Origin: a virus
Lineage: Duplodnaviria > Heunggongvirae > Uroviricota > Caudoviricetes
IMG/VR virus record: IMGVR_UViG_2700989366_000013
Strand: one strand, 5' to 3'
Length of the DNA stretch: 6,972 nucleotides
Shown here: piece after piece, positions 1 to 6,972 of the stretch
Layout of the letters: each line of letters begins with the position of its first letter
Numbering within the stretch: the first letter of the stretch is position 1
Translations under genes and position numbers: made by a program
The notes under the pieces: model-generated
The model's input: only the letters and a program-made list of their open reading frames with translations
Databases searched by the model: none
Told to the model about the DNA's origin: nothing

Positions 1-1392
1 ATGACAACACCAGTCTGGCGTAATGATGACCTGGAAGGCGCTGTCATTGGCGCATTCTTTCTGCGTGGGGCAGATCATGAAGTGATGGATATTCTGATCA
101 CACTACCGGCGGACATTTTTTCTGTACGAGCGTATCGGGATATCTACACAGGCATCTGCAGACAGGCCCGTGTTTCAGGAGTGATTGACCCCGTGCTGTT
201 GTGTAATGAGATGCCGGAACTTGCCCCGGTGATTACTGATACCGGGCGTAAAACCTGGGTGAAGTCTTCACTGGAGCACTATGTTGCAGCGTTGCGGCGC
301 AATGCCGCACTGCGCGATGCAGAAAAAACACTGAATGAGGCGCTGCAGAAATTACGTGATGCGCATACCTGTGAAGCAGCTGAAGATGCCCTGAAGGATG
401 CGCAGAACATGATGGTCACACTGTCGACAGGAAAGGGCGTCATTCAGCCGGTACATATTGATGATGTGCTTCCGGAAGTGGTTGAGCGTGTTGAATGCCG
501 GAATCAGGGGCTGGAGAAATCCAGGACGTTGATGACCGGTATTGATGAACTGGACGCAAAAACAGGCGGTATGGAGCCCGGAGACCTGGTATTCATTGCC
601 GCCCGTCCTTCGATGGGGAAAACCGAACTTGCGCTGGACATCATCGACAAGGTGACTGAGCAGGGGCATGGTGTGCTTCTGTTCACCATGGAGATGGCGA
701 ACATCCAGATTGGTGAACGTATGGTGTCTGCGGCTGGAGGGATGCCAGTATCACGCCTGAAATCTGTGGCTCACTTTGAAGATGAAGACTGGGCGCGTTT
801 CTCACAAGGGGTGGGGCGGATGACCGGGCGCAATATCTGGATGGTGGACCAGGCGAACCTGACCATTGATGAGATATGCGCAACAACGAAACACCATCTG
901 ATTAAACATCCGGAAACGGCGCTGGTGGTGGTTGATTATCTCGGGCTGATAAAAACCCGAACCACGGGGCGTCATGACCTTGCCGTGGGTGAAATCTCAA
1001 AGGGGCTTAAAGGCCTGGCAAAATCCGGTGGTTTTCCGTTGATTGCGCTGAGCCAGCTCTCCCGCGGTGTGGAGTCCAGACCCAATAAACGTCCCATGAA
1101 CTCAGACCTGAAAAATTCCGGAGAAATAGAGGCGGATGCAGACATCATTCTGATGCTTTACAGGGATGAAGTGTACAACCCGGATACACAGGCTACAGGC
1201 ATAGCAGAAATTAATATCACGAAACAACGTAACGGTTCTCTGGGGACGATTTACCGGCGTTTTTATAACGGACATTTTCTGCCTGTGGACCAGGAAAGCG
1301 CACAGGTTCTTTCCACCCCAATGCGGCAGCCCCAGCCGCGCAGATACAGCAATACACGTACCGACAGCAGTAAGATGGAGCGTTTCTTTTGA
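1..1392 (+). CDS. DnaB-family replicative DNA helicase, phage-encoded
   Basis: 463-aa ORF. N-terminal segment resembles the DnaB N-terminal domain (DDLEGAVIGAFFL...ILITLPADIF). Walker A P-loop FIAARPSMGKTELALD, Walker B-like ALVVVDYLGLI, and the DnaB C-terminal motif block SQLSRGVESRPNKRPMNSDLKNSGEIEADADIILMLYRDEVY are present. The ATG sits at window position 1, so the true start could lie upstream. Confidence 0.85.
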   Translation: MTTPVWRNDDLEGAVIGAFFLRGADHEVMDILITLPADIFSVRAYRDIYTGICRQARVSGVIDPVLLCNEMPELAPVITDTGRKTWVKSSLEHYVAALRRNAALRDAEKTLNEALQKLRDAHTCEAAEDALKDAQNMMVTLSTGKGVIQPVHIDDVLPEVVERVECRNQGLEKSRTLMTGIDELDAKTGGMEPGDLVFIAARPSMGKTELALDIIDKVTEQGHGVLLFTMEMANIQIGERMVSAAGGMPVSRLKSVAHFEDEDWARFSQGVGRMTGRNIWMVDQANLTIDEICATTKHHLIKHPETALVVVDYLGLIKTRTTGRHDLAVGEISKGLKGLAKSGGFPLIALSQLSRGVESRPNKRPMNSDLKNSGEIEADADIILMLYRDEVYNPDTQATGIAEINITKQRNGSLGTIYRRFYNGHFLPVDQESAQVLSTPMRQPQPRRYSNTRTDSSKMERFF

Positions 1393-1403
1393 ACAACCAG
1401 ACA

Positions 1404-1646
1404 ATGACTTTTACCTCTGAACAATTGCGTAAACACGCGCAGGAAATGTTGCGACAGGCGGAACAACTGGAAAAAACAGGTGTAACAAAAGATGCCATTC
1501 GTCGGGATATGGTGCCAGCGCTCAGGGAACTGATGCAGGCGAAACATCGCGCACAAAAAGCGGTGGATGAGCTCGTTGATTGTGTGGCAGAGCTGGAAAC
1601 CAAAGTTGGAAAGTTTGAAAAAATGGTGCAGGAGGTGCTGCGCTGA
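1404..1646 (+). CDS. small hypothetical phage protein, about 80 aa, predicted coiled coil
   Basis: The ORF track starts at a TTG (1389); the first ATG is at 1404 (MTFTSEQLRK...). Charged, heptad-like sequence (QAEQLEKT...AVDELVDCVAELETKVGKFEKMVQEVLR). Its stop TGA (1644-1646) shares the A with the rusA ATG (1646-1648), and an AGGAGG lies at 1630-1635, consistent with translational coupling. No recognisable domain. Confidence 0.45.
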   Translation: MTFTSEQLRKHAQEMLRQAEQLEKTGVTKDAIRRDMVPALRELMQAKHRAQKAVDELVDCVAELETKVGKFEKMVQEVLR

Positions 1647-2017
1647 TGCGCCATGAGTTTATTTTACCTTATCCGCCGACGGTGAATACTTACTGGCGAC
1701 GTCGTGGCAGCACATATTTTGTATCAAAAGTTGGTGAGCGTTATCGCCGTGATGTGACGCTAATTGTTCGCCAGCAGCGGCTGAAATTAAACCTGTCCGG
1801 AAGGCTGGCGATAAAGATTATTGCAGAGCCACCGGATAAGCGCCGTCGTGACCTGGACAATATCCTGAAAGCACCACTGGATGCGCTGACGCATGCCGGA
1901 CTACTCATAGACGACGAGCAGTTTGATGAAATCAATATTGTGCGCGGTCAGCTCGTTCCTGGTGGGCGACTGGGCGTGAAGATTTATGAAATCACAGGTG
2001 ATAACGATGGCGCGTGA
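1646..2017 (+). CDS. rusA: RusA-family Holliday junction resolvase (crossover junction endodeoxyribonuclease)
   Basis: 123-aa ORF with the RusA family signature ([12 protein letters not shown]..., [27 protein letters not shown]) and the typical size and position for a lambdoid nin-region rusA. Confidence 0.85.
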
Positions 2018-2393
2018 TATTCAGCAGGTTATGGAACGGTGGGGGGCTTGGGCTGCAAACACTCATGAAGATGTATCCTGGGCGTCGATCGCTGCTGGTT
2101 TTAAAGGGTTAATTCCGTCGAAAGTGAAATCACGCCCTCAGTGTTCTGATGATGATGCAATGATAATTTGTGGCTGTATGGCCCGGTTGAACAAGAAAAA
2201 TCAGGATTTGCACGATTTGCTGGTGGATTATTACGTAGGTGGAATGACTTTTATGAGTCTGGCACGGAAACATGGGTGTTCGGATACCTGTATTGGCAAG
2301 CGCCTGCAGAAAGCGGAAGGGGTTATTGATGGCATGTTGATGATGCTTGATATCCGGCTGGAGATGGACAGATACGTAGAACGAATTATGTAG
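2007..2393 (+). CDS. late-gene antitermination protein Q (QuuD / Q21-like type)
   Basis: [38 protein letters not shown]...[18 protein letters not shown]...[23 protein letters not shown]... resembles, from memory, the Q-type antiterminators of DLP12/Stx-type lambdoid phages. Start chosen at ATG 2007 because AGGTG (1996-2000) lies 6 nt upstream; an in-frame ATG at 1986 is an alternative. It overlaps the rusA 3' end and is immediately followed by a promoter-like element. Confidence 0.6.
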
Positions 2394-2397
2394 GTGC

Positions 2398-2427
2398 TTG
2401 ACCAGACACATTGTCCGGGGCTATATT
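2398..2427 (+). promoter_or_regulatory. candidate late promoter (pR'-like) immediately downstream of Q
   Basis: TTGACC (2398-2403), 18-nt spacer, TATATT (2422-2427), beginning 5 nt after the Q stop codon. This is the expected position of pR' and the qut site in lambdoid phages. Confidence 0.35.
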
Positions 2428-2480
2428 CCTCACGCGCCAGCAAAATCTGGCGTCGGGATTGGAACCCCGGATAGAGACCG

Positions 2481-2503
2481 CGACAGACACACGCCGCGAG
2501 CGT
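2481..2503 (+). terminator. intrinsic terminator (tR'-like) after a short leader
   Basis: Hairpin ACACGC (2481-2486) / GCGTGT (2492-2497) with 5-nt loop, followed by TTTTTATT. It lies about 60 nt downstream of the candidate -10. Confidence 0.45.
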
Positions 2504-2702
2504 GTTTTTTATTGTCGTATGCACGCGCACATCTGAATTATGGTGGGGCGCATGGGGGAGCTGAAAAGCTCGCCGGTCGGTTTCCCGGTAGTTCCAACCC
2601 TGTGCGTCTCACCACCCGATGATTGGAACCTGACGGTGTTGACAGTTTCAGGTTTGCAGTTTACATTTCCCCGCGGTGCTCAAAACACCTCGAAAGCGGT
2701 AT

Positions 2703-2730
2703 CCACACCCGATAGCCATGTGGTTTTTTT
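2703..2730 (+). terminator. weak second terminator-like hairpin plus T-run
   Basis: CCACA (2703-2707) / TGTGG (2719-2723) with 11-nt loop, then TTTTTTT (2724-2730). Short stem, so low confidence. It sits inside the N-terminal extension of the 2676 ORF call, which argues against that start. Confidence 0.25.
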
Positions 2731-2873
2731 GTGTCCAGAATTCTTGGTTTATGACCGGGTGTGCGGCTAATACAATACCAGCAATGGAAATACGCCCGCC
2801 GACTTTCGACGGTTTTGAGCGCCCGGTCACCCTCTCAAAAGGGGTAAATCAAAATATTCGAAAGGACATGTCT

Positions 2874-3437
2874 ATGAATCGCACGTCTATTGAAAAACTC
2901 CCGTCACTTACGCATAACCATCTTCCTGTCATGACAACAGAGCTGCTGGCTGATTTGTACGGAACAGAGCGCCAGCGTTTGACAAACAATTTCAATCGAA
3001 ACAAAGAACGGTTTATAGAAGGTAAACATTTTTTCCTGATAGAAGGTGATGCGTTACGAGAGTTGAAGAACGAAAACTCTTTAAGAGTTTCTGTGAAAAT
3101 TGCCCGTAACGTTCGCTCCCTCATCCTCTGGACAGAACGTGGCGCAGCCCGTCACGCCAAAATGCTCGAAACCGATCAGGCGTGGGAAGTGTTCGAAAAA
3201 CTGGAAGACTGTTATTTCAACCAGAAACAGCCACCAGCGGCACAAAACACATCTATCGAAAATGATGGATGCGCATTACTGAGCCACTTCGATAAACACG
3301 GTCAGGTTGAGTTCACGGAAAAGGTACCCGCCGATGCGATGGTATGTACTCTGGAACGGTTTAAATTTTATCTGGAGCAACACGGGTGGATCGTTGCCCG
3401 TAAAGAGCAACTGGTGGAGCGGTTGATGCGGTTTTAA
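2874..3437 (+). CDS. ORF6N-domain protein (phage antirepressor-like / DNA-binding), about 187 aa
   Basis: The segment LPVMTTELLADLYGTERQRLTNNFNRNKERFIEGKHFFLIEGDALRELK matches the recalled ORF6N-domain pattern (L..LYG.....L...RN.ERF....F.L). Start set at ATG 2874 with AAAGGA (2861-2866) 7 nt upstream; ATG 2868 is in frame two codons earlier. The longer 2676 start would run through a hairpin and T-run and lacks an RBS. Confidence 0.6.
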   Translation: MNRTSIEKLPSLTHNHLPVMTTELLADLYGTERQRLTNNFNRNKERFIEGKHFFLIEGDALRELKNENSLRVSVKIARNVRSLILWTERGAARHAKMLETDQAWEVFEKLEDCYFNQKQPPAAQNTSIENDGCALLSHFDKHGQVEFTEKVPADAMVCTLERFKFYLEQHGWIVARKEQLVERLMRF

Positions 3438-3512
3438 AAATTTTTTCCGAAAACTTTACGATCGTAAAAAGTTGAATATCCTGTTAAGAGTGGTTACTAC
3501 GCCACACAGCTT

Positions 3513-3539
3513 AAACCCGCCGATGAGCGGGTTTTTTTA
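3513..3539 (+). terminator. intrinsic terminator downstream of the ORF6N-domain gene
   Basis: AAACCCGC (3513-3520) / GCGGGTTT (3527-3534) with 6-nt loop CGATGA, running into a 7-T tract (3532-3538). Confidence 0.55.
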
Positions 3540-3588
3540 TACCTGAAAAACGGCACAGGACGTTAAACGTGCTGGTGGTCAGATGAGT

Positions 3589-3617
3589 TTGCAGATGTGA
3601 TGACATATGGTTATTAT
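3589..3617 (+). promoter_or_regulatory. possible promoter for the tRNA cluster
   Basis: TTGCAG (3589-3594), 17-nt spacer, TATTAT (3612-3617), about 10 nt before the first tRNA. The -35 match is weak. Confidence 0.2.
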
Positions 3618-3626
3618 TCTGCCTCC

Positions 3627-3703
3627 GGCCCTTTAGCTCAGTTGGTCAGAGCGAGCGACTCATAATCGCCAGGTCGCTGGTTCAAGTCCAGCAAGGGCCA
3701 CCA
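3627..3703 (+). tRNA. tRNA-Ile2 (anticodon CAU, lysidine type; ileX/ileZ-like); elongator tRNA-Met not formally excluded
   Basis: 77 nt including CCA. Hand-folded cloverleaf: acceptor GGCCCTT/AAGGGCC, D-stem GCTC/GAGC, anticodon loop CTCATAA, T-arm GCTGG-TTCAAGT-CCAGC. Sequence closely resembles E. coli ileX as recalled. Confidence 0.85.
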
Positions 3704-3704
3704 A

Positions 3705-3781
3705 CCACCACTAGCTCATCCGGATAGAGCATCAACCTTCTAAGTTGACGGTGCGAGGTTCGAGTCCTCGGTGGTGGGCCA
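3705..3781 (+). tRNA. tRNA-Arg (anticodon UCU, reads AGA)
   Basis: 77 nt including CCA. Acceptor CCACCAC/GTGGTGG, anticodon stem TCAAC/GTTGA with loop CTTCTAA, T-arm CGAGG-TTCGAGT-CCTCG. Begins 1 nt after the previous tRNA. Confidence 0.85.
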
Positions 3782-3783
3782 GC

Positions 3784-3859
<76 letters not shown>

Positions 3860-3862
3860 TAT

Positions 3863-3937
<75 letters not shown>

Positions 3938-4195
3938 GCGAGATTTGAGACGAAGGTTGTTATTTGCACTGACACAATATTGTGTGGGAATGTCTGACTC
4001 CTTACCATCTCCTGTTCTGTGATGTTGTTTTGTTGCAGTTCCAGTGCTCTTTTTTCAGCACCAGAATGGTGCATTGTCGGTCAGGTTACGTAGTGAACCT
4101 CTGGCAGGGGACTGATGATTCATCATTCTGGTGTTGTAAATATCTCTTCGGACAACTTACAAAATATTCTAAGCAAACCCCGGGAACACACTCTT

Positions 4196-4219
4196 AACTG
4201 CCTTGGCTGGCGGTTTTTT
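4196..4219 (+). terminator. candidate intrinsic terminator
   Basis: AACTGCC (4196-4202) / GGCGGTT (4209-4215) with one G-U pair and 6-nt loop, followed by TTTTTT (4214-4219). It starts within the stop codon of the 3982-4197 ORF. Confidence 0.35.
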
Positions 4220-4550
4220 GTACAGCGCTCGGTATGTGTGAGCTGGAAATCAGATTTTGCATGGACTGGAATCATGCTGTTATTTAGGGGCGAAGAACTG
4301 GCTTTTTCTTCCGCCTTCTCACCAGTAACGATTAGAAAAATAATGAAATGCCCCCCTCCGGGGAGGAGGACCGAAGAAAAAAGGCCCCGCCAGCAAAAAC
4401 ATTGGGGATGAACAGCTTTCGCTACTCAGATTGCTGGCGGGTAAAGTTCCTCATGAATTAAGAATGCTACGCGATCTTTTTTAATGGAAATGAAAATTAT
4501 TGTCAATTAGTCGTGCGTGTTTTTTCATACAATATTGGTAAAGGTGATTC

Positions 4551-4587
4551 AGGCCATCAGAGTTTTGCTGATGGCCTTTTTTCTTTC
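4551..4587 (+). terminator. strong intrinsic terminator in an ORF-free region
   Basis: Perfect 10-bp stem AGGCCATCAG (4551-4560) / CTGATGGCCT (4568-4577) with 7-nt loop, followed by TTTTTTCTTT. There is no T-run on the opposite strand, so it is + strand specific. Confidence 0.55.
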
Positions 4588-4845
4588 CGATAGCACAGGT
4601 CTGTCGGGGGGAAAACGTTTTTTGTACATTGTGGATTTTTACATGCTGATATGATTTATTTTCAATTAAATCAATTAGATATGACCTTGCCTTTAATTTC
4701 ACTAATGAAAGTTTGGGGGTGAGGTAACGCTATAAGCGTAGAGAATTCGGTGTATGTCGTGACCGTGTCATTTACAGCATTTTTGATGCCAGAAAATGTA
4801 CATTAACAGCAGAAAGCACCAGTGAGGGGGGTGCCCCTATTAAGT

Positions 4846-4851
4846 TGTCAA
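4846..4851 (-). promoter_or_regulatory. -35 half (TTGACA) of a predicted circle-junction promoter at the IS right end
   Basis: + strand TGTCAA at 4846-4851 is a perfect TTGACA on the - strand, 6 nt beyond the transposase stop. The next 17-35 nt on that strand (+ coordinates 4811-4829) contain no -10-like hexamer. Confidence 0.35.
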
Positions 4852-4856
4852 GCATG

Positions 4857-6053
4857 TTATGACCCCTGCGGGGTATAAAAAGTCCCGTCGCGCATCATGG
4901 CGAACAGAACGTCGCAGCGTCGTCTCGCCAGGGCGATAAGCGCCTGATTGTGTCGTTTTCCCTGACTCATTTTGCGGGTGTAGTAAGCCCTGGAGAGCGG
5001 ATCCCTGAGCGCGGCGAAGGCCGACAGGAACAACGCCCGTTTGAGAGCTTTATTACCCCGTCGCGAGGGATGCTCACCGCGTATTGACGAGCCGGATCGC
5101 CGAGTTACCGGCGCAAGGCCAGCATAAGCAGCGAGATGTGCGGCAGAGGCGAAGGCGCGGCAGGCGACCTCGGTGAGGAGTCTGGCTGCGGTCCTGACAC
5201 CGACTCCGGGCATACTGGTCAGGACCGGGTAAAGAGGGTGAGCAAGAACTCGCTGTTCTACCTCAAGCGCCACCTCGTCTCTTTGCTTACGCAGCGTGAT
5301 GAGCTGGAGTGCCAGACGTGGCAGTACTACGGCAGCGGCATTCGTGCCGGGAACGACGACGGTTTGTTCGGCCAGTGCCTGAGCTATGTCTGCTGCAAGG
5401 CGTTTACCCAGACGAGGCGCAAGTTTGCAGAGCTGGGCTGCCAGCTTCTTCTCACCCAGCGAAGCGAGTTTTTCTGGTGAGGGATATCGCTGGAGAAGAT
5501 CGAGTACCGCCGGGTGCTCAAGTCTCGGACCGAGAACGCGCTCCAGTGCCGGATGTATCTGGGTCAGAAGGCCGCGGATACGGTTGCTGGCCTGCGTTGT
5601 CTGTGCGGCAAGATCATCATCGAAGCCGCAGAGCATGGAGAGTTCGGCGATTTGCTCGTCAGCCAGTTTCAGCGTGCGTAGCGCGTGAGGCAGGGTACGG
5701 GCAGCTTCGGCAATGATGGCAGCGTCACGAGCATCAGTTTTAGCTTCACCGGCGTGTAAGTCGGCTATGCGGCGCATGGCCAGTCCAGGGAGGTATCCGA
5801 CAAGGACTCCTTCTGAGCGGGCAACGGCGACAGGTAACGCACCGATGGTAGCTGGCTGATCAACAACCAGCAGTATCTGACCATGTTGTTTCAGGTCAGA
5901 TATTAGCGACCTGAGTTTGTTTTCGTCGTTGGGTAATGCTTTATCGAACAGGCGTTTACCTGAACGATTAATGGCAACAGCGTGATGCGTATCTTTACCG
6001 ACATCAACGCCGATAAAGACCTGGACGGATTCGTAATCGCTGGATTCGGTCAT
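4857..6053 (-). CDS. IS110-family transposase/recombinase (DEDD RuvC-like N-terminal domain plus Tnp C-terminal domain), 398 aa
   Basis: N-terminus VFIGVDVGKDTHHAVAI (DEDD catalytic aspartates). C-terminal block MPGVGVRTAARLLTEV...AAYAGLAPVTRRSGSSIRGEHPSRRGNKALKRALFLSAFAAL...QGKRHNQALIALARRRCDVLFAMMRDGTFY is characteristic of IS110/IS116/IS900-type transposases. RBS GGGAGA on the - strand lies just upstream of the ATG at 6053. Confidence 0.9.
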   Translation of the reverse strand: MTESSDYESVQVFIGVDVGKDTHHAVAINRSGKRLFDKALPNDENKLRSLISDLKQHGQILLVVDQPATIGALPVAVARSEGVLVGYLPGLAMRRIADLHAGEAKTDARDAAIIAEAARTLPHALRTLKLADEQIAELSMLCGFDDDLAAQTTQASNRIRGLLTQIHPALERVLGPRLEHPAVLDLLQRYPSPEKLASLGEKKLAAQLCKLAPRLGKRLAADIAQALAEQTVVVPGTNAAAVVLPRLALQLITLRKQRDEVALEVEQRVLAHPLYPVLTSMPGVGVRTAARLLTEVACRAFASAAHLAAYAGLAPVTRRSGSSIRGEHPSRRGNKALKRALFLSAFAALRDPLSRAYYTRKMSQGKRHNQALIALARRRCDVLFAMMRDGTFYTPQGS

Positions 6054-6567: not shown

Positions 6568-6972
6568 ATGTCCGTAATGTTACAAAGTTTAAATAACATT
6601 CGCACCCTCCGTGCGATGGCTCGCGAATTCTCCATTGACGTTCTTGAAGAAATGCTCGAAAAATTCAGGGTTGTCACTAAAGAAAGACGTGAAGAAGAAG
6701 AACAGCAGCAGCGTGAACTGGCTGAGCGTCAGGAAAAAATTAGCACCTGGCTGGAGCTGATGAAGGCTGACGGAATTAACCCGGAAGAGTTATTGGGTAA
6801 TAGCTCTGCTGCTGCACCACGCGCTGGTAAAAAACGCCAGCCGCGTCCGGCGAAATATAAATTCACCGATGTTAACGGTGAAACTAAAACCTGGACCGGT
6901 CAGGGCCGTACACCGAAGCCAATTGCTCAGGCGCTGGCAGAAGGTAAATCTCTCGACGATTTCCTGATCTAA
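6568..6972 (+). CDS. stpA: StpA, H-NS-family nucleoid-associated DNA-binding protein and RNA chaperone
   Basis: 134-aa [36 protein letters not shown]...[27 protein letters not shown] matches E. coli StpA as recalled, including the H-NS C-terminal DNA-binding motif TWTGQGRTP. Preceded by an AT-rich regulatory region of about 280 bp (6290-6567). Complete, with stop at 6970-6972. Confidence 0.9.

Follow-up and report, generated by a model that had tools for sequence, protein, structure and literature searches.

We analysed a window of 6,972 nucleotides from a lambdoid prophage of Escherichia coli (assigned by Pfam, Rfam and BLAST), in which a perfect 14-nt palindrome, ACACAATATTGTGT, lies just past a cluster of four tRNA genes. 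We consider it probable that this palindrome is the DNA image of a hairpin arm (P2) of an 82-nt four-way junction, which would form in the 3' trailer of the phage tRNA unit. As judged by sequence comparison, the P2 hairpin and the junction keep their structure in divergent lambdoid prophages (phi80, LT-II phage, and ETEC, EPEC and Shigella types).

Genomic context of the tRNA unit

The features of the window are listed in Table 1. The immI-like RNAs and the ORF6N gene lie directly downstream of the gene for antiterminator Q, an arrangement that resembles the isrK/anrP-type module in a late leader. The -35/-10 layout of the promoter that adjoins the tRNA cluster recurs in the divergent loci L004 and L005, where it ends approximately 7-10 nt before the first tRNA. 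In phi80-type loci the promoter comes after a Q-like gene, approximately 70-90 nt upstream of tRNA-Thr. The tRNA with anticodon CAU is called Met by ARAGORN and is annotated as tRNA-Ile in RefSeq relatives. The tRNA genes are followed by about 680 nt without annotated genes, and in the closest relatives (loci L001 and L002) the holin-lysozyme genes come next after that stretch. The window departs from these two loci at 4611, and the insertion of the IS110-family element (4611/4612) lies a few bases before the holin start. Beyond the IS element we identified a complete 134-aa H-NS-like ORF (6568-6972) with both N- and C-terminal H-NS domains.

Table 1. Features of the window, with the evidence for each.
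Feature	Position	Strand	Evidence or remark
DnaB-type helicase	1-1392		
RusA	1646-2017		
Antiterminator Q	1986-2393		
P1/P7 immI-like RNA set	2421-2836		c4-a1b1 RF03163, isrK RF01394, C4 antisense RF01695, sRNA-Xcc1 RF02221; all above Rfam gathering scores
ORF6N (Ant/antirepressor-like) gene	2676-3437		
Terminator	3513-3540		
Sigma-70-like promoter, TTTGCA-18-TATTAT, adjoining tRNA cluster	3588-3617	+	Consensus scan; predicted start of the tRNA and trailer unit
Four tRNA genes: CAU, Arg-UCU, Thr-UGU, Gly-UCC	3627-3937	+	ARAGORN, Rfam tRNA matches, near-identical RefSeq loci
Non-conserved A/U-rich linker, tRNA-Gly to junction	3938-3965	+	20-42% identity to relatives
P1 5' strand, GCACUG, junction-closing helix	3966-3971	+	Pairs with 4042-4047; CACTG invariant, pairs with CAGTG
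P2 hairpin, the reported palindrome	3972-3985	+	Stem ACACA/UGUGU, 5 bp, loop AUAU; MFE folds
P3 hairpin, 13-nt loop UCUGACUCCUUAC	3986-4013	+	MFE fold; hairpin in every lineage despite different sequence
P4 hairpin, GU-rich in the window	4014-4041	+	MFE folds; covarying pairs at A2 columns 113-115/124-126
P1 3' strand, CAGUGC	4042-4047	+	99% of cells paired, sequence invariant
Invariant U-run, 2-4 nt past P1	4050-4055	+	T113-T117 invariant in A2
Long near-perfect hairpin, 34 bp, about 7 G.U pairs	4052-4140	+	RNAalifold
Mostly single-stranded segment, conserved in 'type I' 3' modules (UAAGCAAAMCCYGGRAAYACA..CUUAAC)	4141-4195	+	Alignment
Intrinsic terminator AACUGCCUUGGCUGGCGGUU + UUUUGU, predicted trailer 3' end	4196-4221	+	Terminator scan
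Terminator-like site	4551-4583		Terminator scan
IS110-family element	4612-~6400		Transposase 4857-6053, - strand

The palindrome and its chance expectation

A preliminary description of the window had reported a perfect 14-bp palindrome at 3972-3985, after the tRNA cluster and about 35 nt downstream of tRNA-Gly. Both sequence and position are borne out, with a spacing of 34 nt from the 3' end of tRNA-Gly(UCC), which ARAGORN places at 3937. The accompanying estimate of about 0.4 such palindromes per 7 kb by chance agrees with our shuffles: 2000 dinucleotide-preserving shuffles gave a mean of 0.45 perfect palindromes of at least 14 nt per window, with P = 0.37 for at least one and P = 0.07 for at least two. 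The window itself contains two perfect 14-nt palindromes, ACACAATATTGTGT and TTTACGATCGTAAA (3455-3468), the latter located past the stop codon of the ORF6N gene and ahead of the terminator at 3513-3540. No further copy of ACACAATATTGTGT with up to two mismatches was found within the window. Taken alone, ACACAATATTGTGT is no more than chance expectation, and the caution of the preliminary description that the palindrome by itself is weak evidence was justified. The case for ACACAATATTGTGT mattering comes from its relatives alone.

P2 in related prophages

At the homologous position in 115 loci we identified a hairpin of 3-6 bp, located 0-2 nt past an invariant CACTG (GCACUG in the window). Fourteen stem/loop variants occur among these loci, with compensatory and wobble changes. 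The window type (stem ACACA/TGTGT, loop ATAT) is found in 25 of the loci. Other stems are ACACAT/ATGTGT, CACAT/ATGTG, GCGTA/TACGT (phi80 type) and ACGTA/TACGT, and wobble stems are GTGTA/TACGT (U.G) and GCGTG/TACGT (G.U). Metagenomes contributed the additional variants CACATA/TATGTG, GCGTA/TGCGT (U.G) and ACACA-AAT-TGTGT. From one main type to the other, both partners change in two of the five pairs (A-U to G-C and C-G to U-A), and the single-site variants are wobble-compatible; the compensatory changes trace to a small number of independent events, in essence the two major lineages and these single-site variants. P2 is weakened in a few cases, to 3 bp in L005 and L006 and by a C.A mismatch in L172. 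All P2 stems were tabulated directly from the sequences; the MAFFT alignment set the 3' arm of the window's P2 out of register.

The exact 14-mer is limited to one near-identical lineage (the 25 fetched loci and nine E. coli records with at least 95% identity), and the window's own lineage is the only one in which P2 reads as a gap-free palindrome. Loop length ranges from 3 to 10 nt between loci, and the palindromic reading is explained, on the loops compared, by loss of spacer from the loop in the window's lineage. The refuting condition of the preliminary description, a lack of conservation in homologous regions, gives a mixed outcome: the structure is kept, and the sequence is conserved only inside that lineage. 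Spacing relative to the tRNA, also raised in the preliminary description, is roughly constant: the linker from the tRNA 3' end to the start of P1 measures 22-31 nt in all lineages.

The same comparisons bear on a reading of the palindrome as an operator, a duplex-DNA site for a dimeric regulator of the tRNA cluster or of the downstream lysis genes. Such a site would suit the perfect two-fold symmetry of the 14-mer and its location in a regulatory region of the prophage, with a transcription unit on either side. An operator would be expected to keep both its half-sites and their spacing. However, the half-sites differ at the homologous position (ACACA, CACAT, GCGTA, GTGTA and ACGTA), the spacing between the arms varies over the full range of loop lengths, the motif is single-copy in the window even at two mismatches, and no regulator gene consistently adjoins it in the loci compared. 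Moreover, the changes preserve pairing at the RNA level, G.U pairs among them, and a G.U pair has no meaning in a duplex operator. We consider the operator-like binding site proposed in the preliminary description highly improbable. Because the stems covary while half-sites and loop length drift, we read P2 as an RNA hairpin rather than an operator, and comparison with the related prophages supports the palindrome functioning as a hairpin without a sequence requirement.

It is also unlikely that the palindrome arose by chance and lacks a function of its own, in a region conserved by prophage kinship. The rate of 0.45 per window and the confinement of the exact 14-mer to one near-identical lineage would accord with chance, and the window-type loop could simply reflect a deletion from a longer loop. 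Nevertheless, the hairpin persists, with compensatory or wobble substitutions and in a fixed register beside P1, where the surroundings are only 40-63% identical, and it belongs to a fold that is recovered independently in each lineage.

Structure of the junction and trailer

The same four-way junction of helices P1-P4, spanning 3966-4047, emerges from RNAalifold and from folds of single sequences, with almost zero unpaired nucleotides between helices. P1 is the same in each of the 48 unique variants and, as it never varies, contributes no covariation evidence. In an exception, GCGCUG (L074/L136), the pair is retained as G.U. The sequences of P3 and P4 are swapped wholesale between lineages, and the hairpin fold stays in each. 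In nearly every lineage the minimum free energy (MFE) fold of the sequence itself is the same P1-P4 arrangement (Z-scores -1.8 to -6), the weakest being that of the window (z = -1.8). The junction is always followed by the U-run, the 34-bp hairpin and, farther downstream, an intrinsic terminator; the pattern CAGTG[CT]-N0-4-TTTTT has 115 matching sites.

In the long hairpin, 98% of cells are paired vs 33-56% in slid controls, and changes on both sides occur at positions 152/220 and 171-173/190-192 of alignment A2. Weak microRNA-precursor-like Rfam matches coincide with this hairpin. The segment that follows it (4141-4195) was found in 142 of 5426 E. coli genomes, in none of which it is annotated as RNA. 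A terminator homologous to that of the window is present in type I loci and lies farther downstream in phi80-type loci, which carry an additional module of approximately 100 nt ahead of the same terminator.

Over alignment A2 as a whole, 98.3% of cells are paired vs 33-56% with partners slid. Cells altered on both sides number 52 vs 12.8 in shuffles, a control that related sequences can exceed without any structure. In the covariance-model alignment A4, 88% of cells are paired vs 38-51% in controls, with the window included in the training set of the model; A4 misplaces some P2 pairs of the window-like ('type A') lineages, so its P2 figures understate pairing. As expected of a conserved structured RNA, pairs are kept by compensatory changes above the controls, in few independent lineages. 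Mean folding energy is -81.8 kcal/mol for the + strand vs -44.3 for the - strand. The + strand gives the better fold in all 48 variants, and about 15 of its 74 pairs are G.U. Given this large difference between the strands, the folded molecule would be an RNA in the tRNA orientation.

The P3 loop CUGACUCCUUACC (3994-4006) is anti-Shine-Dalgarno-like and is conserved in type A lineages only. A search of the loci, the holin ribosome-binding site included, gave no target for it. The GU-rich P4 arm CUGUGAUGUUGUUUUGUUGCAG (4008-4036), which we take to resemble the GcvB R1 seed, is not conserved in relatives.

The preliminary description had offered a processing hairpin as its other reading. That part stands insofar as a hairpin is kept at exactly this place via compensatory and wobble changes; it is modified in that P2 is an arm of a four-way junction and not free-standing. 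A stand-alone 3'-end element of tRNA-Gly, acting as a terminator or nuclease-stop hairpin independent of the larger fold, would have the position typical of trailer hairpins (34 nt past the tRNA 3' end), yet we find it very unlikely. The 5-bp, A/U-rich stem has two G-C pairs and runs into GGGAAUG with no U-run, and P2 was not called by the terminator scan and does not class as an intrinsic terminator. Moreover, P2 is nested within the invariant P1, and the U-run comes after P1, not after P2.

Scarcely credible is a protein-coding reading, in which the palindrome would be part of a small gene (ORF 3982-4197 on the + strand, ORF 3889-4074 on the - strand, or an ORF from 4115). These ORFs exist, some RefSeq genomes have a 'hypothetical protein' annotated across the homologous 3' part, and a conserved AUG with an upstream GGCAGGG lies inside the 3' arm of the long hairpin. 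However, no Pfam family was found for the small ORFs of the region, and the ORF from the conserved ATG gives products of 10-151 aa, with identical nucleotides read in different frames. Within the conserved part, the pattern of substitutions follows the pairing of bases and not the codons.

Distribution and linkage to tRNA genes

Many phage records match the tRNAs alone, and a subset extends beyond tRNA-Gly. The 293 nt after the tRNA match 233 of 5426 complete E. coli genomes. Carriers include the phi80 prophage of DH5alpha (L007), the LT-IIb phage (L003, two copies) and prophages of ETEC, EPEC and EAEC (L004-L009), and a pattern scan of viral contigs recovered 107 stretches. Of 118 copies of the long-hairpin motif, 105 have the 3' end of tRNA-Gly 162-179 nt upstream, and two of the other copies also have the tRNA. 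Scans of one genome per species and of metagenomes added Shigella flexneri, E. ruysiae and more divergent variants from gut metagenomes. The covariance model R1 gives a single match per locus, adjoining the tRNA. Pattern matches in Marinicella, Gynuella and Pseudomaricurvus from the genome-contig scan were not confirmed by the covariance model and are attributed to chance.

In some loci (L051 and L069) the long hairpin occurs without the junction or tRNAs, so the modules are separable. Only the 3' half of the long hairpin is retained in L051, and in L069 a degenerate tRNA-Thr-like remnant is fused to the P1 3' strand. In L074 the tRNA genes have decayed and the junction, with its G.U pair in P1, is intact. 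An IS3-family element (2367-3790) replaces the trailer of L027 from just past tRNA-Gly to the P1/P2 border, and the palindrome is the first sequence retained after it. Two window-type tRNA and trailer units are found in different prophages of one genome in S. flexneri SFBU1023 (L119/L120) and E. coli ECMA0423 (L123/L124).

In two divergent metagenome relatives the junction-adjoining tRNA has a Gly-like scaffold and a different anticodon. That of L179 (2072-2145) is approximately 83% identical to phage tRNA-Gly genes and has the anticodon UUU (Lys) by ARAGORN. In L173 (840-912 and 156-233) the ARAGORN anticodon of the scaffold upstream of the junction is UUC (Glu), and a tRNA with the ochre-suppressor-like anticodon UUA is also present.

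Comparison with known RNAs

Searches of Rfam 15 at permissive E-values (the window, 3900-4860, and phi80-type loci) returned no family for the trailer. The tRNA model (RF00005) gave no match in 3938-4860 at E-values up to 10, and ARAGORN called nothing beyond the four genes. Although its outline is that of a cloverleaf, the junction lacks a T-loop, a D-loop and CCA features, and by RF00005 and ARAGORN it does not class as a tRNA or tRNA-like structure. STnc100 (RF02076) does not match the window; the phi80-type 3' module scores approximately 24.4 bits against a gathering threshold of 47, which was reached by no trailer in 17 loci. A true STnc100 is located elsewhere in locus L009. In RefSeq the trailer carries either nothing or 'hypothetical proteins', and no RNA annotation. 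A literature search by sequence strings and topic (phi80 tRNA; prophage tRNA trailer small RNAs) found no description of the element.

The closest analogues in kind would be tRNA-trailer small RNAs (3'ETS-leuZ), late-leader RNAs (lambda 6S and StxS) and RNase III punctuation hairpins. 3'ETS-leuZ is reportedly a small RNA from the 3' external transcribed spacer (3'ETS) of the E. coli glyW-cysT-leuZ tRNA operon. It is about 50 nt long and consists mostly of a terminator hairpin, together with a single-stranded sponge site. The trailer has the position of a 3'ETS, between the last tRNA (ending at 3937) and the terminator at 4196-4221, both on the + strand, and like 3'ETS-leuZ it would be a non-coding by-product of tRNA transcription. 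Unlike 3'ETS-leuZ, it is phage-borne, about 285 nt long, and contains a four-way junction and a 34-bp hairpin.

StxS of Stx phages is said to be, with lambda 6S, a short constitutive late-promoter transcript. In phi80-type loci the tRNAs and trailer similarly come directly after the post-Q promoter, with a terminator upstream of the lysis genes. This is the position of the pR'-tR' leader, which is read through by Q-modified polymerase. The lambda 6S and StxS leaders, in contrast, have no tRNAs and no four-way junction, and the unit of the window apparently has its own promoter, with the immI-like module between it and Q.

RNase III processing hairpins occur in phage polycistronic transcripts, for example at the early and late sites of T7, lambda sib and the N-leader. 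The predicted 34-bp hairpin resembles these as a long near-perfect duplex between functional units of a phage transcript, and exceeds the approximately 20 bp or more of near-continuous dsRNA of an RNase III substrate. In contrast to those sites, cleavage here is a prediction, and the palindrome lies outside the 34-bp hairpin.

PasA/PasC/PasD and STnc100 are accessory or unannotated small RNAs of the prophage late region (PMC8550237; bioRxiv 10.64898/2026.05.13.724894), and 3'ESTleuZ is listed in the supplement of the former (PMC8550237). Like the Pas RNAs and STnc100, the trailer lies in lambdoid prophages after the Q/tRNA region and ahead of the holin-lysozyme genes, and it would likewise end at an intrinsic terminator. 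Its sequence does not resemble the PasA or PasD2 region of E2348/69, and PasA is on the opposite strand; we rejected both as matches.

Proposed processing of the trailer

We propose that the sigma-70-type promoter at 3588-3617 (the late promoter in phi80-type phages) would transcribe the tRNAs and the trailer of approximately 285 nt together; because of the promoter placement and the intrinsic terminator, they look like one terminator-ended unit. Processing of the tRNA 3' end within the unstructured linker would free the trailer. The junction would constitute a stable folded module in which P2 is an architectural arm, and junction, U-run and long duplex hairpin together could punctuate the unit. 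The 34-bp hairpin and U-run are a plausible processing point for RNase III and RNase E. The unstructured linker, U-run and long duplex suggest that the trailer is cut from the tRNAs and possibly subdivided. The product would be a non-coding RNA ending at the terminator at 4196-4221, which Q-modified polymerase may override in lytic growth. The trailer is probably a processed non-coding RNA of the tRNA unit.

It seems rather unlikely, though we regard it as a candidate, that the P1 helix and U-run form a branched conditional terminator or insulator, or that the junction is a tRNA mimic. As a terminator or insulator, P2-P4 folding may set whether polymerase stops after the tRNAs or runs on into the long hairpin and lysis genes. 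As a tRNA mimic, the cloverleaf-shaped junction may engage tRNA-processing or tRNA-targeting defence enzymes. If either were true, the element, which phi80 shares with many prophages of E. coli and Shigella, would represent a class of regulatory RNA linked to phage tRNAs that has not been described before.

Significance

The palindrome itself is an ordinary RNA hairpin; the element that contains it is of moderate interest. The trailer of about 285 nt is apparently an undescribed structured RNA of lambdoid prophages; about 4% of complete E. coli genomes carry it, as do Shigella flexneri and E. ruysiae. Some of the 'hypothetical protein' calls over it are probably spurious. It is flanked by the late promoter and tRNA genes upstream and by the lysis genes downstream, a position also occupied by toxin genes and known prophage small RNAs. 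Because of this position, the trailer could affect tRNA maturation, late-gene read-through or host regulation in lysogens.
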